Shown here one piece after another: positions 4,085 through 40,021 of a DNA stretch of 64,000 bases (position 1 is its first letter; each line of letters starts with the position of its first letter). The position numbers were made by a program, and so were the translations under genes. The notes beneath the pieces are model-generated. The model was not told the origin of the DNA and searched no databases. It saw only the letters and a program-made list of their open reading frames with translations. Source of the stretch: an uncultured Candidatus Saccharibacteria bacterium (lineage in GTDB: Bacteria; Patescibacteriota; Minisyncoccia; Phycocordibacterales; JAKFXT01); assembly GCA_964385825.1 (NCBI GenBank), contig CAYLPX010000002.1, positions 1,281-65,280 of the forward strand, in the 5' to 3' direction.

Positions 4085-4783
4085 TTAGTTGGTTGAAGTT
4101 ACTGCCTTTGGAGACTTACGGGTACGGATGGTTTCGAGAGCCTTGATAGTAGCGCGAGCATTGTTGATACCGTTCTTACTGCGAGAGAAAATCTTGCTGG
4201 TTACATCAGTTACCCCTCCAAGTTCAAGTACACTTCGCACAGCTCCTCCAGCTACAAGTCCGCGACCACGGCTTGGCACCAACATAGCAACTGAAGCTGA
4301 ATACTTAGCCTCAACATCATGAGGGATGGAACTATTCTTAGTAAGAGGAATGGTGATCATGTGCTTCTTTGCATCACGAAAAGCTTTTTCAATTGCTCCA
4401 GCTGTGTCCCCTGCCTTACCGGTTCCAACACCTACCTTACCTTTACGGTTTCCTGCTACAACCGCAACAGAGAAACTCATACGACGTCCACCGGCAACTA
4501 CACGAGTCACGCGACGGAGTGAGATAATCTTCTGGTCAAACTCTGGCTTTACACGTTCTTCACGACGATTGCCGCGGCGTGCTCCAGGACGTCCTCCCTT
4601 GCGAGTATCACGCTGTGTATTACGAGGGCGAAACTCAGGATTAGCAGCTGTTTTTGAAGCTGGCGCTCCTTCAGCAACAACTTCAGGTGTAGCCTCTTCC
4701 TCTGCCATAGTAAGAGGCGTAGCTTCAGCCACAACATCTGCTGCTGTCTCTACTGTTTCAGTTGTAATAATTTCGTCATTCAT
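4085..4783 (-). CDS. rpsE: 30S ribosomal protein S5 with low-complexity N-terminal extension
   Basis: The S5 core (VTRVVAGGRRMSFSVAVVAGNRKGKVGVGTGKA) is preceded by about 75 aa of acidic or Ala/Thr-rich extension. It directly abuts rplO, so there is no L30 gene. Confidence 0.85.
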   Translation of the reverse strand: MNDEIITTETVETAADVVAEATPLTMAEEEATPEVVAEGAPASKTAANPEFRPRNTQRDTRKGGRPGARRGNRREERVKPEFDQKIISLRRVTRVVAGGRRMSFSVAVVAGNRKGKVGVGTGKAGDTAGAIEKAFRDAKKHMITIPLTKNSSIPHDVEAKYSASVAMLVPSRGRGLVAGGAVRSVLELGGVTDVTSKIFSRSKNGINNARATIKALETIRTRKSPKAVTSTN

Positions 4784-16451: not shown

Positions 16452-17651
16452 TTAGGCAACGATCTTAGTAACAACTCCAGCACCAACTGTCTTACCTCCT
16501 TCACGGATAGCGAGACGCTGCTTTTCTTCAAGAGCAATAGGAGCTACAAGCTTTACCTTAAAGGTAACGGTGTCTCCCGGCATAACCATTTCAACACCTT
16601 CCTTAAGGGTTACTTCACCAGTTACGTCAGTAGTACGTACGTAGAACTGAGGCTTGTATCCAGAGAAGAATGGAGTGTGACGTCCTCCTTCCTCCTTACT
16701 TAGAATGTACACCTCAGCCTCAAACTCGGTGTGTGGATTAACAGATCCTGGCTTTGCAAGCACCTGTCCACGATGGATATCATCTTTCTTAAGACCGCGA
16801 ACAAGGAGTCCAGCATTATCTCCCGCCTGACCTTGCTGAAGACTCTTGTTGAACATTTCAACACCTGTAACGGTTGTCTTTACCGTGTCCTTAAGACCGA
16901 TAATTTCCACTTCTTCACCTACCTTGATAGTACCGCGTTCGATACGACCGGTTACTACCGTTCCTCTTCCTTCAATAGAGAAGATGTCTTCAACTGGCAT
17001 AAGGAATGGCTTATCAAGTTCACGTTCTGGAACTGGAATGTAGGTATCAAGCGCGTTAACGAGCTCAAGTACCTTCTTTGCCCACTCATCATCAGCAGAG
17101 GTTGCTTCAAGAGCCTTAAGACCTGATCCACGGATAACTGGGGCGTTAGCTCCATCAAATCCCTGTTTGGTCAAAAGCTCACGAACCTCTTCTTCCACAA
17201 GATCAAGCATATCCTTGTCATCCACCATGTCACACTTGTTGAGGAACACGATAATGCGAGGTACACCCACCTGCTTTGCAAGGAGCACGTGCTCACGAGT
17301 CTGAGGCATCACACCATCAGTTGCAGCTACCACAAGAACAGCACCGTCCATCTGAGCGGCACCAGTAATCATGTTCTTAATGTAGTCCGCGTGTCCTGGG
17401 GCATCAATGTGCGCATAGTGACGGGTGTCGCTAGCGTACTCGTTGTGCGAGATATTAATTGTAATACCGCGAGCCTTTTCTTCCGGTGCTGAGTCAATGT
17501 CATCAACTCCCTTCATTTTAACTTCTTTACCTGCAAGGTGAAGAACGTTAAGAATAGCCGCAGTAAGAGTGGTCTTACCGTGGTCTACGTGACCGATAGT
17601 ACCTACGTTTACGTGAGGCTTACTACGATCAAAAACTGCTGCTTCTGCCAT
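16452..17651 (-). CDS. tuf: elongation factor Tu
   Basis: 399 aa; [18 protein letters not shown] and NKCD GTPase motifs. Confidence 0.95.
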
Positions 17652-17892: not shown

Positions 17893-17927
17893 CCCCCGCA
17901 GGACTCCGTCCTGCGGGGATTTTCTTT
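17893..17927 (-). terminator. intrinsic terminator downstream of the 1175 aa giant gene
   Basis: On the minus strand: ccccgcaggacggagtcctgcggggg then tttttgatgttt. Confidence 0.7.
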
Positions 17928-17946: not shown

Positions 17947-20900
17947 TTAGTGCTGACTTGCCTTAAGATCTTGAATAAGCTTAGCGAGGGCTGAAATGGC
18001 ATTTGCCATTTGATCCAACCGTTCGTCCTTGAGTGACGCCCCCACTGAACCAAAATCAGTGGCAGGAACAGGAGCAGCAGGAATTCCAATGTAGCCAATG
18101 TACTTGTTTGCACTAGCTCCTGTTGTAAAGCCCCAGAAAACCAAGTTTTGACCCCTATAAGCACTGGCGTCAAAACTAAAGCCGTGATAAAGCGTGGCCG
18201 TACTGCAAGCACTTGCTACAGACTGGGTCGATAAGAGGTTTGCATTTCCTGATCCAACAGCTTGATTGCCAACATAGGCTCCAAAAGTAATAGACTGATT
18301 AACTCCTTTTTCACACATCCAGCCCGTTACTATTCCATCCTGAGTAACATTATCAATAGAGCCCATAACAACCGGGGTGACAGCTGGAGCCACTGGAGCC
18401 TGAACCACTGGTGCTGGAGCCACTGGAGCCTGAACAGCTGAGGCCACCACCTTAACTGGAGTATTTGTTCTGAATAAATATGTATACCCATTAGAAGAGC
18501 CCGGTATTTTTTCAGTGAGATACACAACATCATAATCTCCAGCAACTGCTGGCGCTTTTATTGTTCCACTTCCTTGTAATTGCGCTTGAGTATAAACACC
18601 TGAGTACGAGAGGGCTGGATCCCACTGTTGTCCTGCCTTAGCAAACACAACTAAGTTAGATGGGCCAAGATATGAACTAGACAAATCCCTAACATCCCAC
18701 GTGACTGTAACAAGACCACCTGGCGCAACAGAGGCTGGGGTTGCGGTTAGTTTTAGTGGAATACCTGATTTTGCAGAAACGGGAGAGGATAAGGCACTCA
18801 CATTTCCCGCCGCATCATATGCTTCTACTGTATACGTATACAGAGTATCTGGGGCAAGTGGTCCATCAAGATAATTAAAATTATATGTTGTTACCCCTGT
18901 AATGTTTCCTGTGTCATACCCCGTCACACCCAATGCTGTACCGAGTGTTTTTACCAAAACGCCATTACGGTATATTTTATATCCTGCAACTCCGACATTA
19001 TCATCAGACCTGTTAACCACAACAGTCATGTTTAGATTATTTTCCGCCTTACTAAAGGCTGCTACAAGGGCAATACTTGGAGTAGTTGGGGCTTGTGTGT
19101 CACCAATAGTAGGATTTGTGGTTACAGTAAGAACATTTTTAAACCTCCTCAATTCACTTGGGGCGTTTTCTTGAGTCTGTCCTGTAAGGGGCCATATGGT
19201 ATACGTCGAAGAATATAAAACAATATCATATACACCCGGGGAAGTTGGGGCGTTTTGCTTAGCAGATCCTTTGAGTATGTTGTTCATTGAGATTAGAGGG
19301 AGTCCATTTTGAGCATCTGAGTTATACCCACGGGCAACAAAGCCCAGAAAAGGTTTCGACGGGCTACCGATAGTAGAGATGTCCCAGTCTACGGTAACCA
19401 AAGCGCCCGGCACCACAGAATTAGGAGATATCATTACTGATACTGGATTAATTTCAGTTGATATGAGGAGTGGAGATGATGCCATGGACATGTTTCCAGC
19501 AGCATCTAATGCCTTTATTTCATAATAATAACTTGTGCCTTTTGTAAGGGTACTGTCTGTATAGGTTGTAACGTTGCCAAGTGTGGTAACAAGTACTCCC
19601 CCACGATATAGCTTGTACCCCGTTACTCCCACATTATCAGTTGAAGGAGACCATGAAATAGTTACTGATGTCTGAGTGATACCCGACGAAACTACATTTG
19701 ATGGAATAGATGGTGCTTGAGTATCAGCAGTACCCACTGGACCAGTAATCCTTGTTGTAATGGGCATAATAGAAGACCTTGCTTCATTTCCTCTTGCATC
19801 GAACGCTACAACAATAAAATTATATTTCGTTCCGGGTGTTAAGCCGGATATTGCAATTGATGTAGATGTAGTAGTCCCAACAATAATATCATTTGCCGCA
19901 TTTGGGTCGGAGGAACCTTGCAGTACCCTGTACCCTACTACTCCTACATTATCCGTTGAAGCGGCCCAGGAGAAATTGAACCCTGTCTGTGAAAGACCTG
20001 ATGAAGATAATCCTGTTGGAGCAGTTGGTGGTTGTGTATCTGGGTTTGCACTAGTTGTTATAGTAAGGGGTGATGATTGTGATGAAAGATTCCCAGATGT
20101 ATCCTCAGCAGCTACTGTAAAACTGTATATAGTGCTGGGGGTTAACCCTAAAACGGTATAAAAGTTACCATTAATAACAGCAATCTGTTTTCCATTTTGA
20201 TATAATCTGTAATCTTTAATACCAACATTATCTGTTGATGATTGCCATTGGATAGTTGCGACCGAACCGAGCACATTGTATGAATTTACATTAGTTGGTA
20301 CCGATGGAGCTTGAGTATCATTATTAGCATTAGAAAGCAGTCCTATCTCTGGCGTAGCCACAAGAAAGGCTGTTGACTGAGAAGAAGTGTTACCAGCACT
20401 ATCCTGAGCGCTAACCGTAAAGCTGTAATTGTTTCCAGCAGAAAGACCGGTAACTGCATATGAGGTTGTTTGGGAAGATCCAATTTGAACACCATTCTTA
20501 TAAACCTTGTACACAACGGCCCCACTGTTTCCAATTGAAAATGAAGCGTTCCATGAAAGAGTTAAACTGGTTTGGGTTAAGTTAGATGCACTCAGATTTT
20601 GTGGAATTGATGGACCCTGAGGAACTAAAGCCTGATCCCGAAATCCTACACTACTAGTAGCTGCCACAGGCGCTACGGGAGCAGCAACGTTAGAAGCAAC
20701 TACACTTGCACTAGTTGTGACTGTAAGGCCAGATGACTGTGGAGAAACGTTACCAGCAGCATCAACCGCAGCAACAGAATACGTACCGGTAGTATTTGGC
20801 TGGAAACCAGAGAGCTGAATCTTATTTGAAACCGAAGAGCCAATAAAAGTTCCATTTCTAAAAATCCTATACCCTGTCACCCCAACATTATCAGAAGGGG

Positions 20901-21474
20901 TCGTCCACGTAAGACCGAAACTTACTGTTGTGATGTCAAAAGCACTGAGATTAGTTGGGATGCTTGGTGCTTGGGTATCAGAGGCACTGTTTGAAGCAGC
21001 TGGGGCAACTACAGATGAGGAAGTTGCTGCTACTGATTGCTGATTGTTCGATACCCCATTGTTTGCTGTGGCCACTGGAACCACTGCACCTGAAACGGTG
21101 TTTGAAACTGGTTGAGCAGAAGCCGAGGATGAAGAGCCGCAACTAAGCTCTTTTACCTTCGCCCGCGTAACCGGCCCCACATTACCAATAGGCGAAATAT
21201 TGTTAGCACTCTGGAAAGCTTGAACTGCCTTTTTAGTGAGTTTGCCGAAATAACCTGTTGGGTCAGCATCTAGATAATTAGTTTGAGCTAAGTACACCTG
21301 TAATTCTGTAACGTCTCCTCCCGTATTTTTGTCTCGTGAGCCGAGGACTAGGTTGTGTGTAATGGTAGTACATTCTACTTGTACAGCAGCATCGTTCACT
21401 AAGTCTTGAACTATGGCTTGTGCATTAGCTAGTAGTGGAGCTACTAAGATACTGCTAAGAGCAAAAGATACCAC
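17947..21474 (-). CDS. giant secreted surface protein (1175 aa): N-terminal peptidoglycan-binding-like domain plus multiple fibronectin type III repeats
   Basis: A signal peptide is followed by a PG_binding_1-like segment (TGYFGKLTKKAVQAFQSANNISPIG). Then about 8 FN3-like repeats with the recurring DTQAPSxPxNL ... SDNVGVxGYxxYRNG pattern. Confidence 0.8.
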   Translation of the reverse strand: MVSFALSSILVAPLLANAQAIVQDLVNDAAVQVECTTITHNLVLGSRDKNTGGDVTELQVYLAQTNYLDADPTGYFGKLTKKAVQAFQSANNISPIGNVGPVTRAKVKELSCGSSSSASAQPVSNTVSGAVVPVATANNGVSNNQQSVAATSSSVVAPAASNSASDTQAPSIPTNLSAFDITTVSFGLTWTTPSDNVGVTGYRIFRNGTFIGSSVSNKIQLSGFQPNTTGTYSVAAVDAAGNVSPQSSGLTVTTSASVVASNVAAPVAPVAATSSVGFRDQALVPQGPSIPQNLSASNLTQTSLTLSWNASFSIGNSGAVVYKVYKNGVQIGSSQTTSYAVTGLSAGNNYSFTVSAQDSAGNTSSQSTAFLVATPEIGLLSNANNDTQAPSVPTNVNSYNVLGSVATIQWQSSTDNVGIKDYRLYQNGKQIAVINGNFYTVLGLTPSTIYSFTVAAEDTSGNLSSQSSPLTITTSANPDTQPPTAPTGLSSSGLSQTGFNFSWAASTDNVGVVGYRVLQGSSDPNAANDIIVGTTTSTSIAISGLTPGTKYNFIVVAFDARGNEARSSIMPITTRITGPVGTADTQAPSIPSNVVSSGITQTSVTISWSPSTDNVGVTGYKLYRGGVLVTTLGNVTTYTDSTLTKGTSYYYEIKALDAAGNMSMASSPLLISTEINPVSVMISPNSVVPGALVTVDWDISTIGSPSKPFLGFVARGYNSDAQNGLPLISMNNILKGSAKQNAPTSPGVYDIVLYSSTYTIWPLTGQTQENAPSELRRFKNVLTVTTNPTIGDTQAPTTPSIALVAAFSKAENNLNMTVVVNRSDDNVGVAGYKIYRNGVLVKTLGTALGVTGYDTGNITGVTTYNFNYLDGPLAPDTLYTYTVEAYDAAGNVSALSSPVSAKSGIPLKLTATPASVAPGGLVTVTWDVRDLSSSYLGPSNLVVFAKAGQQWDPALSYSGVYTQAQLQGSGTIKAPAVAGDYDVVYLTEKIPGSSNGYTYLFRTNTPVKVVASAVQAPVAPAPVVQAPVAPAVTPVVMGSIDNVTQDGIVTGWMCEKGVNQSITFGAYVGNQAVGSGNANLLSTQSVASACSTATLYHGFSFDASAYRGQNLVFWGFTTGASANKYIGYIGIPAAPVPATDFGSVGASLKDERLDQMANAISALAKLIQDLKASQH

Positions 21475-21653: not shown

Positions 21654-22169
21654 CTATTTAACCTCAAAAAGAATGTCAAAATCATCCACATTATCAATAG
21701 CTCGCCACTTAGTCTTATCCCCCCTCCTCACAAATCCCTGTTCAAGTGAACGGGTCATGCCAAACTCCTTAATAACTGCAATCTCAGTAGTAGTTCCAAG
21801 GGAAGTACACACAATACCTGCCAATTCCCCCTTTAAATACTGGTAATTGGTGCCATTTACCACTTCACAGGTCCCATCATAGTGTCCCGCATCATACTTA
21901 GTACCGAGCTCGTTTAATGTAACAAGGGTTACCGGCTCCTCATGGTCTTCAAAACGAGGTAACTTAGTCAACTTCCAACTAAAAGAATCCCTGGTAATTG
22001 GCACAGGATCTTTTTTGAAACTAGATTTAAGAAAAGAGGAAATGTCGTCATTTTGCCAGACAAAATAATTTGTCCCTACAAGGAAAAAAAGGAGAAGGAT
22101 AAGAGCTCTATTATTTCGTATTCGCTCCTCATTCTTTCGTACAACTTCTTCAATACTCCTTTTACTCAT
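21654..22169 (-). CDS. membrane-anchored hypothetical protein
   Basis: 171 aa with an N-terminal TM anchor (ALILLLFFLVGTNYFVW). Located between the two giant genes. Confidence 0.5.
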   Translation of the reverse strand: MSKRSIEEVVRKNEERIRNNRALILLLFFLVGTNYFVWQNDDISSFLKSSFKKDPVPITRDSFSWKLTKLPRFEDHEEPVTLVTLNELGTKYDAGHYDGTCEVVNGTNYQYLKGELAGIVCTSLGTTTEIAVIKEFGMTRSLEQGFVRRGDKTKWRAIDNVDDFDILFEVK

Positions 22170-22200
22170 GTGGGTTAATTATACATACAAATATACAATT

Positions 22201-22228
22201 AACAGCTCACGTTAAAGCGTGAGCTGTT
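22201..22228 (-). terminator. hairpin downstream of the 2831 aa giant gene
   Basis: aacagctcacgttaaagcgtgagctgtt. Confidence 0.6.
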
Positions 22229-22250
22229 AATAATTAGGCTATGCCAGTAA

Positions 22251-25200
22251 TTATTTCAAGGTTTTAATAAAAGCTCGTGTTCCCGCACCAAAGAAGCCAC
22301 TCCCCCTCGTAAGCCCATTTGGGGTTAAAATCTCTGCTGTGTGAGCTTCTTGGAACTTTGCTAAAGCACGAGAGGTTGCAACACCAAAATAGGTAGTCTC
22401 ATTGCCGAGAGAACCTGCCCCACTACTTGCTACAGTAAATCCATGGATATTAAGGAATTGTTGAAGTAGTCGTACGTCCTCGCCGCGCATACCAACTTTT
22501 AGATTACGGGTAAATGAGCTGGCTGCACTAGTTTGCACTTGTGTTCCAACGGCAGAAGTGGGGGTGGCACTAACAGCCCCGCCACTTGCCGCATTTAATT
22601 TTGCACGAGTAAGCGGCCCCACTAAGCCATATCCTTCAACTGAGCTGTCACAGCCTAATCCTTGTGCACACTGGAACTTTCCAACAGCTGCTTTTGTGGC
22701 TACTCCATAAAAACCACTATCACTCCCAACTTCAAGATATCCAGTTTTAATCAAGAACTGTTGGAGCAACCGCACTTCATTGCTACGAAGCCCCACATAC
22801 AGAGGGTTTTTAAACACCGTGACATATACTACTGCCCCGCTACCAGTGCCAGTACTACCTGTTGATCCGCCAACTGCTCCTATGGCACCATTACCAAGGG
22901 AAAGTGATACACTTCCTCCTGCGCCCGCGTTACTTACTGTACCAGAAGAAGATCCTCCGCTACTTACAGAACCTCCCCCACTACTTCCCGAAGATCCCTT
23001 TACAGGAACTGTTACTGAAGTGGTGGTCATGTCTGAGAAATCACCAGTATCGTTGACTGAGAAAATACCATAATAGTATGTTCGACCCTCATTTACATTC
23101 ACATCAATCATGGTTGGTAGTGTTGTAGTTCCAACCACAATAGCCGCTGCATCATTTGGACCTGTTAGCGTTGAGTCACTTCTAATAACCTTAAAATACA
23201 CCGAACCATCAGGATAATCAGCTGCTGACCAGGAAAGGATAACACTACCAAACGTAACAGCTACAAGATTCGGCTTTGGTGGCAAAGCTTTAGTCTTCAC
23301 CGTGACTACGTTCGAAATCGGAGAGAGATTACCACTGTCGTCTTTTGTACGAACACCAATTGAATACGTAGTGCCCGGTAAAAGATTCTGAAGTTTTAGT
23401 GATTCAGTTAAACCAGCAGCTTCTGGTGCCTTAACTGCATTTGAAGGAAGTAGTGTAGCTGCTGTCCAGTTATCAACTGATATTACGTCATTTGCAATAT
23501 ACCGAACTTCATAAGCAGTTGGTTTTACGAACTGACCTGAGTTTGCTGGCGCACTCCAAGCCAATTGGAGTGCCTTTGCAGCTCGCTCTTTAATATTGAG
23601 GTTGTTAATCGGGGCTAAATTGCTATTAGCTGAAGCAAGAGTGGTGGTCTTAAAGGTACTGTCTTCCGAAACAAGTGGTGCTGTTACCCCATCAGTAATA
23701 CGCACCCTAAAGTGATATAGCGTCCCCGGAAGAAGATTTGGAATAGTCACCACACTACTCATAGCAGCAGCTGCTGATTGCACTTGTCCATATGAAGCTG
23801 TAATTCCGTATTCAACAGTTGCGGTAACTACTCTATCCGCTCCAATTGAAATAACGGCTCCGGTACTACTTGCTGAGGAATTCATACTAAGTAACTTAGG
23901 TGGAGTAACAACAATATTAGAGACAATTACTGAAACATTGCTTGATACTGTCTTATTACCAGCCGCATCACGCGCCTCAGCGGTCAAAACATGAGCGCCG
24001 TTTGTAACTGATTGAGTATTAAAGCTAAAAGTATATGGAGCTGAGACATCCTCAGTAAGTGCCTGTCCATCAACCTTAAGCACTACCCCAACAACGCCAA
24101 CATTGTCAGTTGCAACAGCTGTAACAGCGATAGTCCCGCTCAAACTACCACCAAGATTTGAGTTTGTGATAGATACTGATGGTGCTTGTGTATCACCCGC
24201 GGAAGACCCACCATTATTTACTGGTACAACTGGCACTACAGGTGCTGGTTGAGCTGGATTCCCAGGATTCGCAAAGTTTGGTTGAGTATACCCATTAGTA
24301 AGAGCCGAGGCACGAAGCTTAAACTGACAAGTGTTACCACATGAAAGATTGGAAAGTGTAACTGATTGTGCTGTGCCAGCAGATGCAACTTGAGGCATGT
24401 TTGGCACATTAGTGGCTGCCCAGAAAGCTATATTACTTGCAGGATCGAACTCATAGGTAAACGTGAGGCTATTAAAGTTAAGGTTTGGAACAATATTTTT
24501 ATTTGCATACTTGAGCTGGTACACATCCATACCCGCTGGGGCTGTCCAGGATATCCGGTATGTTCCACCACCAAGTGGTGTAACGTCGAGCGGAACAAAA
24601 CTTACTTTTACATCACCTGCATGAGCCACGTCATAAAGAAAACGTAGATTACCAATATCAGAGTTAGCGACGGTGTCTTGGTCCTTATCAACGTTAACTG
24701 CAAGCTGCTTACCAAGTGTGAGGAATGTTGAATCGCCAGTTGCTTCATAGGCAATAGATGCGCCACGACCAAAATCATAGGTACGTCCATCCTTTGACGT
24801 GTCTGGAACTGTTACATCATAGTCATATGCCACCCACGGCTTACCATTATTCGCAGGGTATCGATAACTCTCTTTTAGGTTAAAGTATCCAAGACCCTCA
24901 AGGAAATCCATGAGATCTTGTTTGGTATAACTTAGTCCTGGATAAGCAGCGTTCTGGTAGACATGCCCCTCTGGCGTATAGCGATACACTTCATAGAGCG
25001 TGGCCGGGAAATACGTTGTTGAGAACATAGAGTGCGATGCTTGTGGGTAGCCATTTACCGGAGCTGCAGTATAACCACGAGTAAGATTGCGTCCCACATC
25101 AGGCTTACCTGGATACTTAGTCTCGGTTGAAAGGAGATAATCTACATACCTATCAATCTTTGTTAGGTAGCGAGTGTTCCCTGTCAGCATGTAAGATTGT

Positions 25201-28200
25201 GCTGCAACTCTCGCGCCAGATAGTCCCAGTCTATACTCAATGTTTCCATCAGCTGCACCACCATAGCGATTATAAGCAGATTCGGCTAACTCAGTAACAG
25301 CGTCTTTATAACGCTCATCGCCCGTGAAGTAATACGACATGAACACGCTATACACCCAGATATGCTCAAAATCATCTTCCATCCCGTTTATTCCGCCATC
25401 AATTGGCTTGGTTGGCACTAAACGATTGTAATGATAATCATTTCTAGCTGTGCCAAAATCAAAGTCATCAGAGTACCAAGGGAACTGATCAGACACGAAG
25501 TGTGTTCGCTCAAGTGCATTTAACATTTGACCTGTGTTTCCATTTCGTACATACGTAAGTTGCCATGCAAGCGCAATATCACGCTGGTTAAGTGTCCCAC
25601 CCTGACTTGAATCCCAAAGACGAGTCACTGCACGGCTACTATTAGGGATAGTAAAGTTAGGCCGGCCATTAGCTGCAAAAATAGTCTGCTGTTCTTGCAT
25701 TGAGGCAAGACGCTTCTCACCAAAGAAAGCGCCAGAGTCACGATACTGCTCAAACGCCGCACGACCAAAAAGTGGTGTCTGGTTTTCAGTATTAATAGCT
25801 GCATTATCAACAGGAGTTGTGTGGAAGTTGAACATTAAATCACGTGACTCATGTACCCCCCAATCGATACCGAGCCCTGTTTTATTGTTACGTTTTGAGA
25901 ATATACCAACTGTTACCTCTCCATTCCCATTGAACTCAAGGCCGGATGGGAAGTAAGCGGCCATATTGCGATAGGCTACAGTAACCCCATCATCATTAGT
26001 ATCTTTAAGTTCTCCATAACCAAGTGCATAGTCAGTAAGATTATCAGCGATGAAATCTTTAACTACTGTTCCATTTTTTACAAACCGAGTTCCAATGTCG
26101 GTTGTGTAGTTAACTGGCGGTATGAAGTACCCACCTATATTCCATTGCCAAAAATCACTGTATGAAGTATCTGCTAGGCGCTTAGTGTACCCCTGGAAAA
26201 GATACACATTGTCACCACTTGCAAGCACCCCAGTTTGATTACCTTTACTTGTTGGCAAACTATATGAAAGGTTTTGTTTTAATGCAGTTCCTAAAACAAG
26301 TTCAAAGGAATTAATCGGGATAACCGAGTGGGTTGCATAGTATGCATTACGTAATACTGGAACCACTTTAACGCTGCTTGAGTTTTTGCTAAAGGTGAGA
26401 TAAAGGGTGTAGCCAAGTGGGGCCTGATTCCCTGCGGCATCCTTAAAACGACCTTCAACTTTTACTACTGATTTAGCTGGACCGTTTTCAGTAACGGTTA
26501 CGGTTGGCGTATCGTAAAGCGATGAGTAAGTTAAGTTACCCGGCAAAGTAAGTACTGCTCCTCCATTATTTCCTGATTCAACGAGTGTAGTACCATTCAC
26601 CACCACCTTATCAAAAATATTGAAACCATTTTTGCGAATAGTGAACTGAGCGACTCCCGTATCAACATTGACCGCATTACCCACGTCAACTGCCATGTTC
26701 GGTCCCCCACTACTACCGGAGCCATTGGTGAGAGTTACAGTAGCAGTCCCCCCTGCTGGAATATTTGCTAATGTATCAACCAAAACCCATTGCAAATTAC
26801 CGCTTGGATGATAACTGAGGGGTTTGAACTGATACACCGCAGCACCAGAAAGACCGAGCTGACTAACTGAACGAATATTATCTCCGTCCTTAAGTGGGAT
26901 ACCGAAAGAAGCTAGGCCGTTTGTTCGAGTTGTACCAGACTCTCCAGATGGAAGGAGTTCATTAATCGTAATAGGGATGTTAAGTGAACCTACATTCAAA
27001 TTAACTCCTGCAGTAACTACATTTGCAGATGTCGATTGAGCAGAATTATTCCCGGCAGCATCATAGGCTGAAACAGCATATGTATAAGACGTGGCAGGCG
27101 AAAGACCTGAATCGACATAGCTACTCGAAAGCGCTGTGCCGATCTGCACACCATTACGAAATACTTTGTAGCCAGTAACTGCTACATTGTCAGTTGCAGC
27201 TGTCCATGAAAGATTTGCTTGGAAAGATGAGGCGGCAGAAACAGAAAGACCTTGTGGGACCGTTGGAGCTTGAACATCCTGTGGCCCTTGATTTTGGTTC
27301 GCAGGCGGAACTTGGTTTACAACAGGAGCTGCTGCTAGAGTTGTAGTACTAACACTTGATGACTGAGCAGAATTATTCCCGGCAGCATCATAGGCTGAAA
27401 CTGTATACGTATACAGTGTTGAGGTGGCTAATCCCGTATCACTATAACTAGCCCCCTGAGAGGTACTAATCTGTGTACCATTACGAAATACTTTGTAACC
27501 AGTAACACCAACATTGTCAGTTGCAGCATTCCAAACAAGCGAAACAGCGTTTGGTGACGTGGGAGTAGTACGAAGATTCTGAGGAATACTTGGGGCCTGT
27601 GCATCGGGAGCACCAGGCTGAACCACCACAGGCGCTACCAATGCTCCGCCAGCCGATGCCCCAGCAGTTGCGGTAAGAGTAACTACTGACATAGTGCCAA
27701 TATTTCCAGCAGCATCATAGGGAATTACTGCGTATGAATATTTGGCCCCCGCTATTAAACCAGAATCTGTATAACTAGTGCCAGATGTTGTAATAGTTAC
27801 TAATTGCTGAGCATCAGCATGACGAGCAATCCTGTAACCAACAACTCCAACATTATCGGTTGCGGCGTTCCAAACAAGGCTTATGGAAGTATTTGAAGTG
27901 GCTTGTGCTGAAAGATTTGAGGCAGCGGAGGGAGCAACTTTATCACTTGGCACTACCCCTTTTACAGCGTTTGGATCTAGCTTATAGAAAAATACTGGCT
28001 CGTTCTTGTGATTATTCACCAAAATGAAAACATTTTTTGAAGGAATATAACTAAAACGAGAGAAGGTAGCATTGTTGGCCCCATTATTAAGAGCCCAGGA
28101 GTTCCTTGGAATGGAACTAAGCGCACTGGTGCCAATTCTTGTAACTGCAAACGTATCTGGATTAATAACGTATATATCCTCCGGCAAAATCACGTGATCG

Positions 28201-30746
28201 ATAGAAATATCTCCGTTTTCATCTGTCGCCTCCCCATTCCAGGCCACATACACATCATCAACTGAATCATAGGCAAAACCAGATCGCCTACCTTTTACAA
28301 TTTCTATGTCTCCCGTAAGAGGTCCTTTATTTACAGAAAGAATTCCAGACGCATTAAGATCGTACCAATAAAGTCCCCCTGCCCCAAAGCGAACAAAGCG
28401 ATGACGCTTAGTATCGATTACAGCAGTGTAGTAACCACTATCATTTTCATTAGGACCACGAACCACCCAAGAGTCAGTTAATGGGCTCCATTCTGAAAGC
28501 GTACCAATACCTGGCCAATTCCATACGTGGCCCGTTGCAGGATCTACAGCGGTACTTGGTACAACGCTACCCCCAAAGTAGGTCACATCTTTCTTTTGCT
28601 CCCAACGATTGTTGTTTATGTCGTAACAATTAAGCTGTTTAGTTGTTCTTTGTCCTGTTGGGTATGGAGCAGTCGTACCAAATCGACAAAAACGATCAAT
28701 AGCAGGAACATACTGTATATAGTTATACGAGTGCACAGAGCGAGGTTGCTGCAAATCAGGATTACCATTTGTATCTGGATAGTACCCCGAAGCCTCAATT
28801 GCGCTGTTAGGATCAACATCTAGACCTGGTTGCCGAATAGTTCTCCATTGAAGCGTGTTTATATCAAACGCATAAATCTCATTTCCATAATAATCATTAT
28901 GCCCCCCACCATGAATATAGAAACGATTACGAGTTGAGTCATAAGTTGCACTACTTTCTGTAAAATAATCGGTGTAGTTCCCCGAAGTTTGATTCCCCGG
29001 CCAAATGAAATCTATTTTCTTAATTTGTGAATTAGGAACGGCATACCATGTTCCTGGAGCCATGGCATCAAGCGGGTTGCTCGCAAGTGGAGCTAAAGTA
29101 GTTGCACCAACTGAGCCTGTTTGAGCTGATGTATTACCAACCATATCTCTCGCCTGTATAGCGTAGGTATAGTTTGTGTTGGCCGAAAGACCAGTATCTT
29201 GGAAATTCAAACTGGCCGTTGAAGCGATTTTGATACCATTTCGATAAATATCGTACATGACAATACCGGCTGCGACATTATCCCGAGCAATGTTCCACGT
29301 AAGATTTACTTGATCGTATGCAGCTCCAACTGCTGTAAGTCCGATTGGAGTTGCTGGAGCAACCGTATCCTGTGTTCCCGCAAGTGAAAGAGAAGACTCC
29401 TTAATCCAACCATCTCTACCTGTATCATTATCTACTTTCCAGAATCGCACGCCGGCAGTATCGGTAACGGGACCCCCCACAATTGAACCTGATATACTTG
29501 AAGCAAGTGTTGCAAAAAGATTTGGTGTATTAACCCCTGGAATCAGGCTTACTACCGAAGTAGGGTTAGCATAGAGAGATGCACCAGACCCACTCTGTAC
29601 CCTTGCTCCGTATGATAGAGCATTTATAGCACTTTGAATGTTGGCGGCCTGTGCCACTACTGCCGGAGCAGCTACTACGTTTTGAGCCACAGCCGCAATG
29701 ACTACAGCTTGAGCGGCAGCCGTAGTAGCAGAAGCAGCAGCAGACTGCCCACTTACATTTCCTGCAGCATCAAAAGCCTGCACTGTATAGGAATAAGATG
29801 TCCCAGCAGTAAGTCCTGTATTTGAATACGTTGTTGCCGCACCGAGTGTGGCAAGTAATACTCCACCACGATAAATCTTATAACCCGTAACCCCAACATT
29901 ATCAGACGAGGCACTCCATGAAAGATTTATTTGTGTAGATGAAATAGAGGAGGCAGTAACATTGGCTGGCACAGAAGGTGGAGTGACATCTGCTACAGCG
30001 GGAACTCCCTGAGAAACAACAACTTGGCCTGATGAAGTTTTACCAAATGCGTCCCACGTAGCGTTACCGTCATTAAGAGTAAAAGCAACACCATTAATGG
30101 GCCTACTCTCCAGCCCAACTAATGAAGCAGCAACTTCTAGCCGTACCCACTGTCCCTTAACTGGAAGTGGCCCCATATACCTGCGGCTAACCGTTCCATC
30201 GGCTCCCCAAGTAATAGTATTTGCCCCCCAATAAGCACGATGCTCCCAACTTCCATCATTAAACTGGAGCATTAACTCTGTGGGAGTATTCGTTGGATCA
30301 AGGTATACATAGACAAAAAGCTTATCTCCCACATTTGGAGTTAGCTTATTTGTTGCATTAGTAAAATAATGTTGATGTCTTCCCGCCTTATTGGCACCCT
30401 GATGAGCAGAGGAACCAGAAAATGGAGCTGGGTTGCTACTTACCCAAGTAAAAGAATCGTCCCCCCCTGCAGTAGCTCCCGCAGGAAGCGCGTCCTCTAT
30501 CCAAACGGTATCAGCAGAACTAATTGCGCCTGCAACTTGAGCCAAAAGTGCCTGCTTCCCACTTTGAGCAAGTAACTTATTAATGCTTTCTCGCAAAGAC
30601 TTAATTTTTGATTCAAGCTCCTCTAGTGTAGGGGGTGCTGACTTACTCTTGCTTATTGCCGCCAATGAAGTAACCGGGTTGATGAAAAAAGTAAACACAA
30701 AAACACTGACCAGTATGAGTTTAAGGATTTGTTTTGTGTTTTGCAT
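22251..30746 (-). CDS. giant secreted multidomain protein (2831 aa): FN3 repeats, Kelch-like beta-propeller, central polysaccharide lyase/hydrolase-like region, Ig-like domain, two C-terminal peptidoglycan-binding repeats
   Basis: Signal peptide MQNTKQILKLILVSVFVFTFFINPVTSLA. Repeated FN3 motifs (DNVGVTGYKxFRNG). A Kelch-like YIHGGGHNDYYGNEIYAFDINTLQWRT. A bacterial Ig-like VVGVVLKVDGQALTEDVSAPYTFSF. C-terminal PG_binding_1-like repeats (VRLLQQFLIKTGYL..GFYGVATKAAVGKFQ, and EDVRLLQQFLNIHGF..YFGVATSRALAKFQ). Confidence 0.8.
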   Translation of the reverse strand: MQNTKQILKLILVSVFVFTFFINPVTSLAAISKSKSAPPTLEELESKIKSLRESINKLLAQSGKQALLAQVAGAISSADTVWIEDALPAGATAGGDDSFTWVSSNPAPFSGSSAHQGANKAGRHQHYFTNATNKLTPNVGDKLFVYVYLDPTNTPTELMLQFNDGSWEHRAYWGANTITWGADGTVSRRYMGPLPVKGQWVRLEVAASLVGLESRPINGVAFTLNDGNATWDAFGKTSSGQVVVSQGVPAVADVTPPSVPANVTASSISSTQINLSWSASSDNVGVTGYKIYRGGVLLATLGAATTYSNTGLTAGTSYSYTVQAFDAAGNVSGQSAAASATTAAAQAVVIAAVAQNVVAAPAVVAQAANIQSAINALSYGARVQSGSGASLYANPTSVVSLIPGVNTPNLFATLASSISGSIVGGPVTDTAGVRFWKVDNDTGRDGWIKESSLSLAGTQDTVAPATPIGLTAVGAAYDQVNLTWNIARDNVAAGIVMYDIYRNGIKIASTASLNFQDTGLSANTNYTYAIQARDMVGNTSAQTGSVGATTLAPLASNPLDAMAPGTWYAVPNSQIKKIDFIWPGNQTSGNYTDYFTESSATYDSTRNRFYIHGGGHNDYYGNEIYAFDINTLQWRTIRQPGLDVDPNSAIEASGYYPDTNGNPDLQQPRSVHSYNYIQYVPAIDRFCRFGTTAPYPTGQRTTKQLNCYDINNNRWEQKKDVTYFGGSVVPSTAVDPATGHVWNWPGIGTLSEWSPLTDSWVVRGPNENDSGYYTAVIDTKRHRFVRFGAGGLYWYDLNASGILSVNKGPLTGDIEIVKGRRSGFAYDSVDDVYVAWNGEATDENGDISIDHVILPEDIYVINPDTFAVTRIGTSALSSIPRNSWALNNGANNATFSRFSYIPSKNVFILVNNHKNEPVFFYKLDPNAVKGVVPSDKVAPSAASNLSAQATSNTSISLVWNAATDNVGVVGYRIARHADAQQLVTITTSGTSYTDSGLIAGAKYSYAVIPYDAAGNIGTMSVVTLTATAGASAGGALVAPVVVQPGAPDAQAPSIPQNLRTTPTSPNAVSLVWNAATDNVGVTGYKVFRNGTQISTSQGASYSDTGLATSTLYTYTVSAYDAAGNNSAQSSSVSTTTLAAAPVVNQVPPANQNQGPQDVQAPTVPQGLSVSAASSFQANLSWTAATDNVAVTGYKVFRNGVQIGTALSSSYVDSGLSPATSYTYAVSAYDAAGNNSAQSTSANVVTAGVNLNVGSLNIPITINELLPSGESGTTRTNGLASFGIPLKDGDNIRSVSQLGLSGAAVYQFKPLSYHPSGNLQWVLVDTLANIPAGGTATVTLTNGSGSSGGPNMAVDVGNAVNVDTGVAQFTIRKNGFNIFDKVVVNGTTLVESGNNGGAVLTLPGNLTYSSLYDTPTVTVTENGPAKSVVKVEGRFKDAAGNQAPLGYTLYLTFSKNSSSVKVVPVLRNAYYATHSVIPINSFELVLGTALKQNLSYSLPTSKGNQTGVLASGDNVYLFQGYTKRLADTSYSDFWQWNIGGYFIPPVNYTTDIGTRFVKNGTVVKDFIADNLTDYALGYGELKDTNDDGVTVAYRNMAAYFPSGLEFNGNGEVTVGIFSKRNNKTGLGIDWGVHESRDLMFNFHTTPVDNAAINTENQTPLFGRAAFEQYRDSGAFFGEKRLASMQEQQTIFAANGRPNFTIPNSSRAVTRLWDSSQGGTLNQRDIALAWQLTYVRNGNTGQMLNALERTHFVSDQFPWYSDDFDFGTARNDYHYNRLVPTKPIDGGINGMEDDFEHIWVYSVFMSYYFTGDERYKDAVTELAESAYNRYGGAADGNIEYRLGLSGARVAAQSYMLTGNTRYLTKIDRYVDYLLSTETKYPGKPDVGRNLTRGYTAAPVNGYPQASHSMFSTTYFPATLYEVYRYTPEGHVYQNAAYPGLSYTKQDLMDFLEGLGYFNLKESYRYPANNGKPWVAYDYDVTVPDTSKDGRTYDFGRGASIAYEATGDSTFLTLGKQLAVNVDKDQDTVANSDIGNLRFLYDVAHAGDVKVSFVPLDVTPLGGGTYRISWTAPAGMDVYQLKYANKNIVPNLNFNSLTFTYEFDPASNIAFWAATNVPNMPQVASAGTAQSVTLSNLSCGNTCQFKLRASALTNGYTQPNFANPGNPAQPAPVVPVVPVNNGGSSAGDTQAPSVSITNSNLGGSLSGTIAVTAVATDNVGVVGVVLKVDGQALTEDVSAPYTFSFNTQSVTNGAHVLTAEARDAAGNKTVSSNVSVIVSNIVVTPPKLLSMNSSASSTGAVISIGADRVVTATVEYGITASYGQVQSAAAAMSSVVTIPNLLPGTLYHFRVRITDGVTAPLVSEDSTFKTTTLASANSNLAPINNLNIKERAAKALQLAWSAPANSGQFVKPTAYEVRYIANDVISVDNWTAATLLPSNAVKAPEAAGLTESLKLQNLLPGTTYSIGVRTKDDSGNLSPISNVVTVKTKALPPKPNLVAVTFGSVILSWSAADYPDGSVYFKVIRSDSTLTGPNDAAAIVVGTTTLPTMIDVNVNEGRTYYYGIFSVNDTGDFSDMTTTSVTVPVKGSSGSSGGGSVSSGGSSSGTVSNAGAGGSVSLSLGNGAIGAVGGSTGSTGTGSGAVVYVTVFKNPLYVGLRSNEVRLLQQFLIKTGYLEVGSDSGFYGVATKAAVGKFQCAQGLGCDSSVEGYGLVGPLTRAKLNAASGGAVSATPTSAVGTQVQTSAASSFTRNLKVGMRGEDVRLLQQFLNIHGFTVASSGAGSLGNETTYFGVATSRALAKFQEAHTAEILTPNGLTRGSGFFGAGTRAFIKTLK

Positions 30747-30870
30747 TGATGAATTAAAAAAATAAAACTAACTAAATTTTAACATTTACTGGCCATACAA
30801 CTAAAGCGGGGGTTGCATAATGCAATTCCCCCTCTTCCTATTTCTTAGTATATACACTTCAAAAGAAAAT

Positions 30871-30898
30871 ACACAGCCCCGCATATGCGGGGCTGTGT
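30871..30898 (-). terminator. intrinsic terminator downstream of fusA
   Basis: Perfect palindrome acacagccccgcatatgcggggctgtgt followed on the minus strand by attttcttttg. Confidence 0.75.
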
Positions 30899-30931
30899 AT
30901 AACTCCTTAAAAGCGCCCGTAATAACAGTTT

Positions 30932-33064
30932 CTACTGGCGACTTTCAATAATATCCTTAGCAACGTTCGCTGGGACAATATCGTAATGGTCAAACTCCAT
31001 AGTAGATGTACCACGTCCCTGAGTAAGTGAGCGGAGAGTGGTGGTATAACCGAACATTTCAGAAAGTGGCACTTTAGCCGAAACTACTTTAAGCCCTGAA
31101 CGATCTCCCATACCCTCAATCTGAGCACGCTTACTTGAAAGATGTCCTGAAATATCTCCCATAAACTGCTCTGGCACTAGTACTTCCACCTTCATAATAG
31201 GCTCAAGGATAACTGGGCCAGCCTTTTGTGCAGCCTCTTGGAGAGCCTGAGAAGCCGCGATCTTGAAAGCGATTTCTGAAGAGTCCACGTCGTGATATGA
31301 CCCATCGTAGAGCTCACAAGAAACATCTACCAGCTTAAAGTGCGCCACAATTCCGCGTTCCATCCCTTCCTTAATACCCTTTTCAACCGCTGGGATGTAT
31401 TCCTGAGGGATAACTCCTCCCTTAATGCTATTTACGAACTCAAAACCTTCAGAACGCTTAGTGTTACGAGGAAGTTCCTCTGGGGCTGGTTCAAGTGGTT
31501 TAATCTTAATCTTAACGTGTCCGTACTGTCCGCGACCTCCTGTCTGCTTCACATACTTAACTTCAGCTTCTGCAGGACGAGTAATAGTTTCTTTGTATGC
31601 TACCTGTGGCTTACCAACATTAGCCTCAACCCCGAACTCACGCTTCATGCGATCAACAATAATTTCAAGGTGAAGTTCACCCATTCCAGAAATAATAGTT
31701 TCGTTAGTTTCAGCGTCCGATGCTATACGGAATGTTGGATCTTCATCAGATAGTTTCTTAAGAGCCACACCCATTTTCTCCTGATCAGCCTTTGTTTTCG
31801 GTTCAATACGAAGAGAGATAACCGGCTCAGGGAATTTAATTTCTTCAAGAATAATAGGGTTCGCTTCATCACAAAAGGTATGTGAAGTACGAGCACTCTT
31901 AAGTCCTACCGCTGCTGCAATTTCTCCAGCGTACACCTTCTTCACTTCTTCGCGATCATTAGCTTGGAGTCGCACAATACGTCCCAAACGTTCCTTTTCT
32001 CCCGTGGTTGCATTGTAAATATATGATCCAGCTTCAATAGTTCCTGAATACACACGGAAGAAAGTAAGTTGTCCTACGAAAGGATCAGCCTGAAGTTTAA
32101 AAGCGAGGGCACAAAATGGCTCCTTGTCATCTGCATGGCGGAAAATTTCTTCGCCGGTGCGAGGATCAAGTCCCTTAATAGCTGGAATATCGAGTGGAGA
32201 AGGTAGAAAATCAACCACCGCATCAAGTACGAGCTGTACTCCCTTATTCTTAAGAGCAGACCCTGCGTATACTGGGAAAATTTCATTAGCAATAACGGCC
32301 TTGCGAAGCAGTGCCTTAAGACGAGGAAGATCAATTTCTTTTCCTTCAAGGTATTCAGTCATGGTAGCCTCATCGTGCTCCACGATACGTTCAACAAGCT
32401 CATGACGATACTTTTCAGCATCAGCTTTAAGATTTTCTGGTATTTCAGCTTCACGAATAGTGTTTCCCATTTCACCCTCAAAGTAGAAAGCTTTCATTTT
32501 AAGAAGGTCGATAACTCCCTCATGTGCATCTTCTTCACCAATAGGGATCTGGAGACGAACTGCCTTTTTATTGAGGCGATCAAGAATACTTGCGTATGAT
32601 CGTTCAAAAGATGCACCAGTACGATCAAGTTTGTTGATGAAACAAATACGTGGCACTGAAGCTTCGTCAGCATAACGCCAGTTAGTTTCTGATTGTGGCT
32701 CTACTCCTGCAACGCCGTCAAACACCACCACAGCTCCGTCTAGCACGCGAAGCGAGCGCTTCACTTCCACGGTGAAATCAATGTGTCCTGGGGTATCGAT
32801 AATATTGAAACGATACTTGGTATCATCCTTAGTCGCATCAGTCTTACCCCAAAAACAAGTGATGGCAGCAGCCGTAATAGTAATACCGCGCTCACGCTCC
32901 TGTTCCATCCAGTCAGTCACAGTCGCCCCATCGTGCACTTCTCCGATTTTATGAGTCATTCCTGTGTAGTAGAGAATGCGCTCAGAGGTAGTAGTCTTGC
33001 CCGCATCAATGTGGGCAATGATACCAAAGTTACGGACGTGCTCTAATGGATAATCGCGGTTCAT
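30932..33064 (-). CDS. fusA: elongation factor G
   Basis: 710 aa; GTPase motifs AHIDAGKTT and DTPGHIDF; EF-G domains IV and V. Confidence 0.95.
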
Positions 33065-38494: not shown

Positions 38495-40021
38495 TTACAC
38501 GCCGGCAATTGCCGGCGTGTTTTTCTTTTGGAGTTTCCATAGGAAAATTCCAATACTTACATAGGAGAGGAACATGACCCAAGCTGGAAATTGCGGCACC
38601 GCAAAAGATGCAAAAGATAAGTTGCCAAATCTTTCAGCAATTAGTATTTCATAGTGAAGGAGCCAGTAGGTGACATATGCGAAGGGAGTTGCAATAGCAG
38701 TACTTATAAGAGCACATACTCCTGTAATAAATCCAAGAAGCATAGTGAGTGGGATGAGTGGCAAAACCAAAAGATTGGCAAGGAGAGCTACCACTGAAAA
38801 AGTCCCGATGCTGTAGAGAATAAATGGCAATACAAATAGCTGCGTTGAAAGTGTAGCTACTACTATCTCCTGCAGGCCAAACTTTCTCGGCACCACACGT
38901 AGATACCGCTCAAACAATGGTGAAACATAAATAAGCCCCACTGTTGAGAGAAATGATAATTGAAAAGAAAGATCAAATACTAAAATTTTGGGATTAATGA
39001 ACACCATAAGTACTCCTGCCAAAATAAGTGCTCGCGTGATGTCATAGTCTCGCCGAATAAATGTAGCGAGAAGTGCGAGTATTGCCATAACTGATGCGCG
39101 TACCACCGTTGCCGAACCTCCCGTCATAATAGCGAAAAGTAAAATCCCCACCACCCCGAAAAATATTCGTTTGCGAATAGCAAGAAACGAAAACAGAAAC
39201 ATGAATGCCGTTGCCACAATCGTGATGTTGTAACCCGAAAGCACAATGATGTGAACGAGCCCCGCACTGCGAAAACTATTTTGCAAATCTTTTGAAAGGG
39301 ATTGATTGCCACCAAGGAGTATCCCACCAAGAAATGAACTTTCGGGGGTTGTTATAACTCTATTAAGTCCACTTAAAAATTTCTGCTTAAGTAGAAAAAG
39401 ATTTCTCTTTAAGCTATTGCCCCCACCCTCCCCCACAACGGTAATACCGGGAAAGGTCATTTCATATAATATTCCTGACTTTGCTAAATAGGCTTCGTAG
39501 TTAAATATTCTCCCGTTTGATGTCTCGAAATTCTGTGGTTTCTTAAGAGTACCTACAATTGTTACTTCCTCGCCATAGTTATAGAGCGTCGGGGGAAGTG
39601 TGGTTATAAGTACTTTTTCTTTTACTGGATATGTTACTCCGCGATACTCCAATGTAGTAACTAAAACAGTGAGTCTTGTTGTTTTCTCACGATAGTCTGA
39701 CTCTTCAGTAATGAGTCCGTGAAATGCCGCTCTCGTACCTAAAGCCACTGCCATGCTATCTACCTGCGAAGTGTCATACTCAAATCGCAGTATTCCAAGG
39801 ACTGTCCCAAAAAGAAAAACACTCACTAGAAACGAGTGAGTGTTTTTCTTTTTAAGTATGAGACCGAGACCAAAGATTGCAAAAGCCAGAAGCAAAAGGC
39901 TATAAAGTATATACTCTGGGACATCATAGAGTGACCGAATAAAAATTCCGACTAAGAAACTCCCGAGTATGGAAAAAATAAGTCGATTCGTGCTCACAAA
40001 AATTATGTAGTTGTATCCCAC
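38495..40021 (-). CDS. comEC: competence protein ComEC (DUF4131 plus competence membrane domain; no MBL domain)
   Basis: 508 aa polytopic membrane protein with the ComEC/Rec2 architecture but no C-terminal lactamase domain. Confidence 0.75.
   Translation of the reverse strand: MGYNYIIFVSTNRLIFSILGSFLVGIFIRSLYDVPEYILYSLLLLAFAIFGLGLILKKKNTHSFLVSVFLFGTVLGILRFEYDTSQVDSMAVALGTRAAFHGLITEESDYREKTTRLTVLVTTLEYRGVTYPVKEKVLITTLPPTLYNYGEEVTIVGTLKKPQNFETSNGRIFNYEAYLAKSGILYEMTFPGITVVGEGGGNSLKRNLFLLKQKFLSGLNRVITTPESSFLGGILLGGNQSLSKDLQNSFRSAGLVHIIVLSGYNITIVATAFMFLFSFLAIRKRIFFGVVGILLFAIMTGGSATVVRASVMAILALLATFIRRDYDITRALILAGVLMVFINPKILVFDLSFQLSFLSTVGLIYVSPLFERYLRVVPRKFGLQEIVVATLSTQLFVLPFILYSIGTFSVVALLANLLVLPLIPLTMLLGFITGVCALISTAIATPFAYVTYWLLHYEILIAERFGNLSFASFAVPQFPAWVMFLSYVSIGIFLWKLQKKNTPAIAGV
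38497..38529 (+). terminator. GC palindrome plus T-run; the same sequence encodes the last 8 codons of comEC on the other strand
   Basis: acacgccggcaattgccggcgtgt followed by ttttctttt. Confidence 0.7.

Follow-up and report, generated by a model that had tools for sequence, protein, structure and literature searches.

A giant gene for a predicted secreted, modular protein of 2,831 amino acids (aa) was analysed in a 64,000-nucleotide stretch of DNA, referred to here as the window, from an uncultured Candidatus Saccharibacteria bacterium (GenBank assembly GCA_964385825.1, contig CAYLPX010000002.1, positions 1,281 to 65,280). The central module of the protein has the fold of CAZy family PL26 but is not a member of that family; it belongs to an uncharacterised sister family without the PL26 catalytic loop. 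The whole protein is best read as Sec-exported, tethered to the wall and displayed on a stalk, where it would bind, and probably depolymerise, bacterial surface or extracellular polysaccharide, a reading to which a probability of about 0.55 is assigned. The gene, its domains and their folds, the family of the module, the selection on the gene and the genomic contexts are established here. Modular, wall-associated, glycan-targeting surface proteins are a kind already known, and the novelty lies in the sister family of the module. The gene and the module are located as follows.

22251..30746, minus strand: whole gene for the predicted secreted modular protein; single open reading frame with metagenome copies and a conserved ortholog
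24327..26993, minus strand: PL26-like module, aa 1252-2140; beta-sandwich, super-sandwich, toroid (about aa 1681-2045) and FN3-like domain

The gene starts with ATG and runs as a single intact frame, with exactly the coordinates and length that had been given in a first-pass annotation made from the letters of the window. A chance open reading frame is ruled out because an identical copy of the protein was called on four metagenome contigs and because an ortholog of 2,829 aa, 92.4% identical over the full length, is present in a Candidatus Saccharibacteria metagenome-assembled genome (MAG; L003), with an overall ratio of nonsynonymous to synonymous substitution rates (dN/dS) of 0.06 between the two. 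The ortholog also lies between fusA and tuf. The genome scan that reached this MAG was run with an alignment of four close sequences as query, and dN/dS was obtained by the Nei-Gojobori count between the giant gene and the MAG ortholog. The ratio was 0.03 in the propeller and 0.03 in the toroid, which, at 95% identity to the ortholog, is under the strongest constraint in the gene. The giant gene is genuine and strongly constrained.

The AlphaFold2 (AF2) model of the 889-aa module, built from 18 sequences, had a mean pLDDT of 82.8 and a pTM of 0.87, and consisted of four parts: a beta-sandwich at the N-terminus, a second, large one at the centre, a helical region spanning module residues of about 430-790, and an FN3-like domain at the C-terminus. 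The overall fold, with an N-terminal beta domain, a central beta super-sandwich and an alpha/alpha toroid, is arranged as in PL26, and the best structural match was PcRGLX of Penicillium chrysogenum (PDB 5XQ3/5XQG/5XQJ/5XQO), at a sequence identity of 14-16%. The first-pass annotation had placed an alpha/alpha-toroid module resembling a lyase or hydrolase at the centre of the protein; the structure prediction bears this out at the level of the fold, but the families that the annotation had named for checking are not its relatives.

The sequence relation to PL26 was further analysed by Pfam and by profile-profile comparison, in which PcRGLX and the true PL26 proteins P0016 and P0017 made up the PL26 alignment. 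PcRGLX_2nd (PF21345) matched aa 1356-1463 at about 33-35.5 bits against a cut-off of 23.5, and no Pfam match to PcRGLX_1st (PF19501) or PcRGLX_3rd (PF21346) was found in the module, whereas P0016 and P0017 match all three domains. The hhalign comparison gave a probability of 99.3% and an E value of 3e-20 over module residues 21-364, corresponding to the two beta domains only. Low-confidence local echoes of PL26, an FLRTG-like turn and Y-x3-G-D-E-R, were also seen. Searches of PDB sequences with the module, both as a single sequence and as a profile, returned nothing relevant, and a GH88 identity was discarded as its Pfam match was non-significant (E 0.049). For PcRGLX itself, a single Tyr-to-Phe substitution at chain residue 437, in LEITYEDW, sets the substrate complex 5XQO apart from wild-type 5XQ3; Tyr 437 (chain numbering) is therefore presumably the catalytic residue that was inactivated, and text searches for the catalytic residues of PcRGLX found no statement. 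Since the module stands outside PL26 and lacks an equivalent of the PcRGLX segment with this Tyr, we can only infer its catalysis, as we do export, wall tethering, substrate and host targeting.

An exhaustive hidden Markov model search of 1.84 billion representatives returned 4,922 proteins at E<=1e-3, of which 979 also reached E<=1e-30, the resulting family size of about 980 being a number of clusters at 50% identity. Most of the best 150 listed matches cover the full 885 profile positions, and none carries a source name pointing to function. A word-indexed search had yielded six matches and the reading of a rare family, which was overturned by the thousands found exhaustively. Modules with 47-53% identity occur in proteins of Nitrospira MAGs, of Acidobacteria MAGs and in two metagenome proteins. 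Many members consist of little beyond the module itself (about 900-1,000 aa). Among 24 long members, Kelch propellers were found in 13, Big_7 in 9 and FN3 in 8, and single proteins carry PG_binding_1, CBM96, Laminin_G_3 or a right-handed beta-helix. The metagenome protein P0007 (1,660 aa) has a module of 47% identity, after which come a Kelch propeller, FN3 domains and a PT-HINT domain (PF07591); the latter ends at the C-terminus of the protein, resembling a polymorphic-toxin or autoprocessing arrangement.

Residue conservation was counted across 128 near-full-length family members, and the most conserved polar positions were as follows.

His1795, toroid: 100%, the sole invariant non-glycine residue
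Tyr1805, toroid: 95%
Asp1947, toroid: 95%
Asp1760, toroid: 94%
Glu1959, toroid: 91%
Glu1811, toroid: 90%
Arg1709, toroid: 88%
Tyr1668, just before the toroid: 93%
Lys1372, Asp1412, Asn1421, Asn1467 and Gln1518, beta domains: 91-96%

His1795 together with Tyr1805, Tyr1668, Asp1760, Glu1811, Asp1947 and Glu1959 are candidate catalytic residues. The stretch MEDDFEHIWVYSVFMSYYFTGDERYKDAV, quoted in the first-pass annotation, lies in the helical part of the module and contains His1795. The conserved polar set and the low dN/dS of the toroid together give an enzyme-like picture, and the conservation pattern would fit beta-elimination by His/Tyr or hydrolysis by Asp/Glu alike.

The genomic surroundings of other family members were examined for hints of function. 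Genes for TIGR03097 exosortase A-associated O-glycosylation ligases (473 and 189 bits; cut-off 188) are found at most a few kb away from two members. One of these loci (L009) also holds Wzx, GT2, MBOAT, methyl- and sulfotransferase genes, and the other, from Acidobacteria (L004), holds GT4 and cupin-domain genes. At two loci a PF13480 acetyltransferase gene is directly downstream of the family member.

TIGR03097 ligase and PF13480 neighbour features: L004 4527-5843; L009 14539-15828; L008 6940-7980; L009 11017-12072

These neighbourhoods suggest that a family member may be an unrecognised component of PEP-CTERM/exosortase-type extracellular polysaccharide (EPS) loci. A Parcubacteria member adjoins mraZ-mraW-ftsI-murE. 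Another member, P0004 (L010 2501-5263), is encoded on a phage-like contig, two genes after an Mtd_N/tail-fibre-like gene and upstream of PHROG-matching genes that include a Holliday-junction resolvase. Pattern scans of IMG/VR and tblastn against INPHARED were negative or trivial for the module, and PHROGs gave no clear sign of phage for a second candidate, L013, so the phage link comes from this one contig. All of these contexts point to bacterial surface polysaccharide or to the wall. The module itself is not specific to epibiosis, because modules with 47-53% identity occur in Acidobacteria and Nitrospira MAGs and distant members lie in the EPS loci of their own bearers.

Outside the central module, Pfam scores were judged against curated cut-offs, and FN3 positions were taken from an iterated self-search with jackhmmer. 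All features are on the minus strand and are listed from the N- to the C-terminus.

30660..30746, minus strand: predicted signal peptide, aa 1-29, cleavage after TSLA, judged by eye
30012..30515, minus strand: N-terminal CBM-like beta-jelly-roll domain (putative), aa ~78-245
29721..29981, minus strand: FN3-1, aa 256-342 (jackhmmer; best Pfam fn3 stretch 259-337)
29358..29720, minus strand: unassigned Ala/Val-rich linker and small domain, aa 343-463, 91.7% identical in the ortholog
29097..29357, minus strand: FN3-2, aa 464-550 (jackhmmer; overlapping Pfam RGI_lyase/fn3 at 469-531)
27942..29084, minus strand: Kelch-type beta-propeller region, aa ~555-935 (Kelch_4 and Kelch_3 above cut-off)
27012..27932, minus strand: FN3-3, FN3-4 and FN3-5, aa 939-1027, 1052-1136 and 1161-1245 (jackhmmer; Pfam fn3)
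23925..24182, minus strand: Big_7 bacterial Ig domain, aa 2189-2274 (Pfam 53.1 bits against 24.1, stretch 2189-2256)
22977..23903, minus strand: three FN3-like beta-sandwich units, aa 2282-2590, the third by eye
22797..22976, minus strand: Gly/Ser-rich flexible linker, aa 2591-2650, by composition of the translation
22263..22787, minus strand: two PG_binding_1 repeats, aa 2654-2716 and ~2757-2828 (Pfam)

The N-terminus, MQNTKQILK / LILVSVFVFTFFINPV / TSLA-A, combines, as judged by eye, a basic n-region with a hydrophobic core and small residues in the c-region, and reads as a Sec signal peptide. After its cleavage, the domain at aa ~78-245 would be the end of the protein furthest from the wall-binding repeats. 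This domain, which the first-pass annotation did not mention, has no Pfam match. Of its 440 homologues, 39 were aligned; these are 47-70% identical, an unusually high conservation for an extracellular domain. Named sources of the homologues include Dehalococcoidia, Rubrivivax, Blastocatellales and Nitrospira, and Big_5, PKD or discoidin domains are frequent neighbours. The domain is a putative carbohydrate-binding module (CBM) of jelly-roll fold and strengthens the glycan theme. For the small domain at aa 343-463, an SH3-like identity was unsupported (SH3_2, E 0.13, non-significant).

The FN3 arrays were recovered as five canonical domains, with Pfam fn3 (PF00041) scoring 163.4 bits over five stretches against a cut-off of 25. 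Weaker FN3/Ig-like units were detected by jackhmmer at aa 2189-2274, 2282-2354 and ~2417-2485, and between aa 2282 and 2590 Pfam gave sub-threshold or overlapping matches to Pur_ac_phosph_N (2295-2367) and Ig_Rha78A_N/fn3_4 (2382-2486). An NCBIfam match to 'exoglucanase CbhB' covered only the FN3 region at aa 931-1141, with a score of 300 against a cut-off of 1950, and was set aside as an FN3 artefact.

When the Kelch region was scanned in isolation (aa 549-935), Kelch_4 scored 29.5 against 21.6 and Kelch_3 26.8 against 22, with one motif passing, whereas whole-propeller models stayed under their cut-off (34.8 against 50); the Kelch-like propeller of the first-pass annotation has partial support, from the repeat models and not from those of the whole propeller. 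Homologous stretches precede the module in P0019 (37% identity, E 3e-70), P0082 (34%) and P0014 (26%, E 3e-20), as well as at an Acidobacteria locus (L004) with the order Kelch and FN3, then module. At the C-terminus, PG_binding_1 (PF01471) scored 57.2 bits against a cut-off of 23 in two stretches, the best at 2654-2716, and the pair is shared with family member P0047 (42% identity). The Pfam annotation thereby recovered the Ig-like domain as Big_7 and the two peptidoglycan-binding repeats, both of which hold the VRLLQQFL...FQ motif quoted beforehand, in the domain order that had been described from the letters.

The proposed mechanism combines these parts. The signal peptide would direct export of the giant protein by the Sec pathway, and the C-terminal PG_binding_1 repeats, behind the Gly/Ser linker, would hold it non-covalently on peptidoglycan, most simply that of the producer's own monoderm-type wall. 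About a dozen FN3/Ig-type beta-sandwich domains would serve as an extended spacer, and the distal CBM-like domain and the Kelch-type propeller would bind glycan. The PL26-like module would cleave, or at least grip, bacterial surface or extracellular polysaccharide, and in an epibiont the target could plausibly be the glycans of the host cell surface, in line with what has been speculated for essential glycan-binding envelope proteins of a cultured relative (PMC10633639). A more far-reaching proposal, which is tentative and distinctly less probable, is that the module defines a new depolymerase family with a PL26 scaffold, a different catalytic apparatus around His1795 plus Tyr/Asp/Glu and Kelch as the usual partner. 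Such a family would cut bacterial EPS or wall glycopolymers, being used by EPS producers on their own polymer, by at least one phage-like element, and by Candidate Phyla Radiation (CPR) epibionts on a peptidoglycan-tethered stalk to open the glycan coat of the host.

Several observations weigh against the main reading of the protein. No family member has a known activity. The toroid alone gave an hhalign E value of 0.019 against PL26, which is no significant sequence similarity, and the invariant PL26 toroid motifs YGDFMH, RHTxEVDVYHIG, RHxVxHW and AKxARISQ are not kept. In an extended hhalign alignment, read with low aligner confidence, the segment of about 30 residues that bears the Tyr of PcRGLX stands opposite a gap in the module family; between well-aligned flanks there are 5 residues in the giant protein against 36 in PcRGLX, and the AF2 model has short confident beta-strands and no long loop at this position. 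Foreign cell-wall polymers as the target and host penetration, as put forward in the first-pass annotation, are candidate roles only. The peptidoglycan-binding repeats may just as well anchor the protein in the wall of its producer as in that of a host, and the EPS-locus contexts in other phyla argue for the polymer of the producer rather than that of a host. The phage-linked member P0004 has its own signal- or lipoprotein-like N-terminus, which may make it a moron and not a tail depolymerase or virion component.

Part of this evidence would also be expected if the module did not catalyse at all but formed, with the CBM-like domain and the propeller, a lectin-like head on a wall-anchored stalk. 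The absence of the Tyr-bearing PcRGLX segment and of the PL26 toroid motifs, and an architecture dominated by binding and spacer domains, agree with such an adhesin, and adhesins are essential in cultured Saccharibacteria (PMC10633639). It is nevertheless unlikely to be the whole function, given that dN/dS reaches its lowest value in the toroid, that an invariant His and several Tyr/Asp/Glu at >=90% are conserved in it across 128 diverse members, and that near module-only members exist, some of them in EPS loci, where an enzyme is the more usual occupant. A similarly low probability is given to an enzyme that acts on its producer, remodelling or releasing the producer's own extracellular or wall polysaccharide like the lyases and hydrolases of EPS operons, with no attack on a host. 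Family members beside TIGR03097 ligases (with Wzx and GT2 at one locus and GT4 at the other), the two loci with a PF13480 acetyltransferase directly downstream, the Parcubacteria member beside cell-wall and division genes, and a PG_binding_1 anchor naturally suited to the producer's own wall all speak for it. Against it, the giant gene itself is flanked by fusA and tuf and by no EPS-biosynthesis genes in the window, the member in the phage-like contig would fit an attack on the surface of another cell, and the length of the stalk, with the CBM-like domain at its far end, suggests that the protein extends outwards from the cell.

Two further identities concern the chemistry of the module. A true PL26 exo-rhamnogalacturonan lyase that scavenges plant pectin is very improbable: although PcRGLX is the best structural match and PcRGLX_2nd is matched in Pfam, the identity is 14-16%, PcRGLX_1st and PcRGLX_3rd are unmatched here though they match P0016 and P0017, and the segment with the inferred catalytic Tyr is missing. 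In addition, a published analysis describes PL26 as a homogeneous family connected at E 1e-5, with one characterised enzyme. The first-pass annotation had suggested a search for catalytic residues like those of heparinase II/III or alginate lyase, and an enzyme of that type (PL12/15/17/21) is the least credible of the identities considered. No Pfam or PDB sequence match to it was found, the matches that did occur span only about 180-200 residues and rank below some 55 others, and it is effectively refuted at the fold level. A wall-tethered protein that binds and probably depolymerises polysaccharide is retained as the best reading.

The source organism is a Saccharibacteria relative within the CPR, as the first-pass annotation had supposed, because the closest genome is the Saccharibacteria MAG (central module 94%, fusA 96.5% and tuf 99% identical) and because rpsE (S5; 4085-4783, minus strand) abuts rplO (L15; 3640-4083, minus strand), leaving no space for rpmD (L30) between them. 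A missing L30 gene is a trait of the CPR. In the window, the giant gene sits between fusA (30932-33064) and tuf (16452-17651), near rpsG/rpsL and the S10-spc ribosomal cluster, and in the related MAG, too, a giant surface-protein gene occupies the fusA-tuf interval. A consensus scan for terminators found two long, GC-rich hairpins beside the gene.

30869..30900, minus strand: terminator-like hairpin between fusA and the giant gene; 14-bp stem, 9 GC pairs, T-run
22198..22231, minus strand: terminator-like hairpin just past the stop codon of the giant gene; 14-bp stem, 6 GC pairs

Because these hairpins stand upstream and downstream on the coding strand, the giant gene looks like its own transcription unit, and its co-transcription with fusA is doubtful in view of the strong terminator-like hairpin between them. 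Two other genes lie between the giant gene and tuf. One (17947-21474, minus strand) encodes a second large surface-type protein of 1,175 aa, in which an N-terminal PG_binding_1 precedes five or more FN3 domains, and has a further terminator-like hairpin after it (17894-17918); the other (21654-22169, minus strand) is an open reading frame of 171 aa with no Pfam match. The Saccharibacteria MAG, which is otherwise syntenic, lacks both of them, and they look like a strain-specific insertion. A ComEC-type competence protein (Competence and DUF4131) is encoded at 38495-40021 on the minus strand, about 8 kb from the giant gene, and natural competence has been reported for Saccharibacteria (PMC10633639).

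The protein can be compared with several known systems. In Southlakia epibionticum, SEML1_0890, 0891 and 0315 are essential envelope proteins with glycan-binding or glycan-degrading domains, for which the authors offer, as a speculation, a role in adhering to or degrading glycans associated with the host (PMC10633639). By their description they resemble the giant protein in being saccharibacterial and extracytoplasmic and in having FN3 or lectin-type domains, whereas a PL26-like module, a Kelch domain and PG_binding_1 are not reported in them. The wall- or S-layer-anchored glycanases of monoderms combine a CBM, FN3/Ig spacers, a catalytic module and wall-binding repeats; here the anchor is PG_binding_1 and not SLH, LysM or sortase, the module comes from an uncharacterised family, and the organism is an ultrasmall epibiont. 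PcRGLX and the module share two homologous beta domains. The module differs in carrying an additional FN3-like domain at its C-terminus, in forming part of a giant surface protein and in its family, a distinct one of about 980 clusters in which no member has been characterised. The polysaccharide depolymerases of EPS operons and phage tails occupy situations that are both matched by the genomic settings of family members, yet the module is unrelated to classical beta-helix tailspikes and to AlgL-type PL5, so the likeness is a functional analogy.

The module family has neither a characterised member nor a solved structure, and its kinship with PL26 shows mainly in the fold. An activity found for it would add an entry to the catalogue of carbohydrate-active enzymes and annotate thousands of environmental proteins, some of them from EPS loci of the exosortase type. 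The CBM-like domain at the N-terminus is also widespread and very conserved, and Pfam has no model for it. To our knowledge, little is understood of the way in which ultrasmall CPR epibionts recognise their hosts and breach them, and the giant protein is a concrete candidate for this role, with separable parts in a wall anchor, a stalk, a CBM-like tip, a propeller and a PL26-like module.

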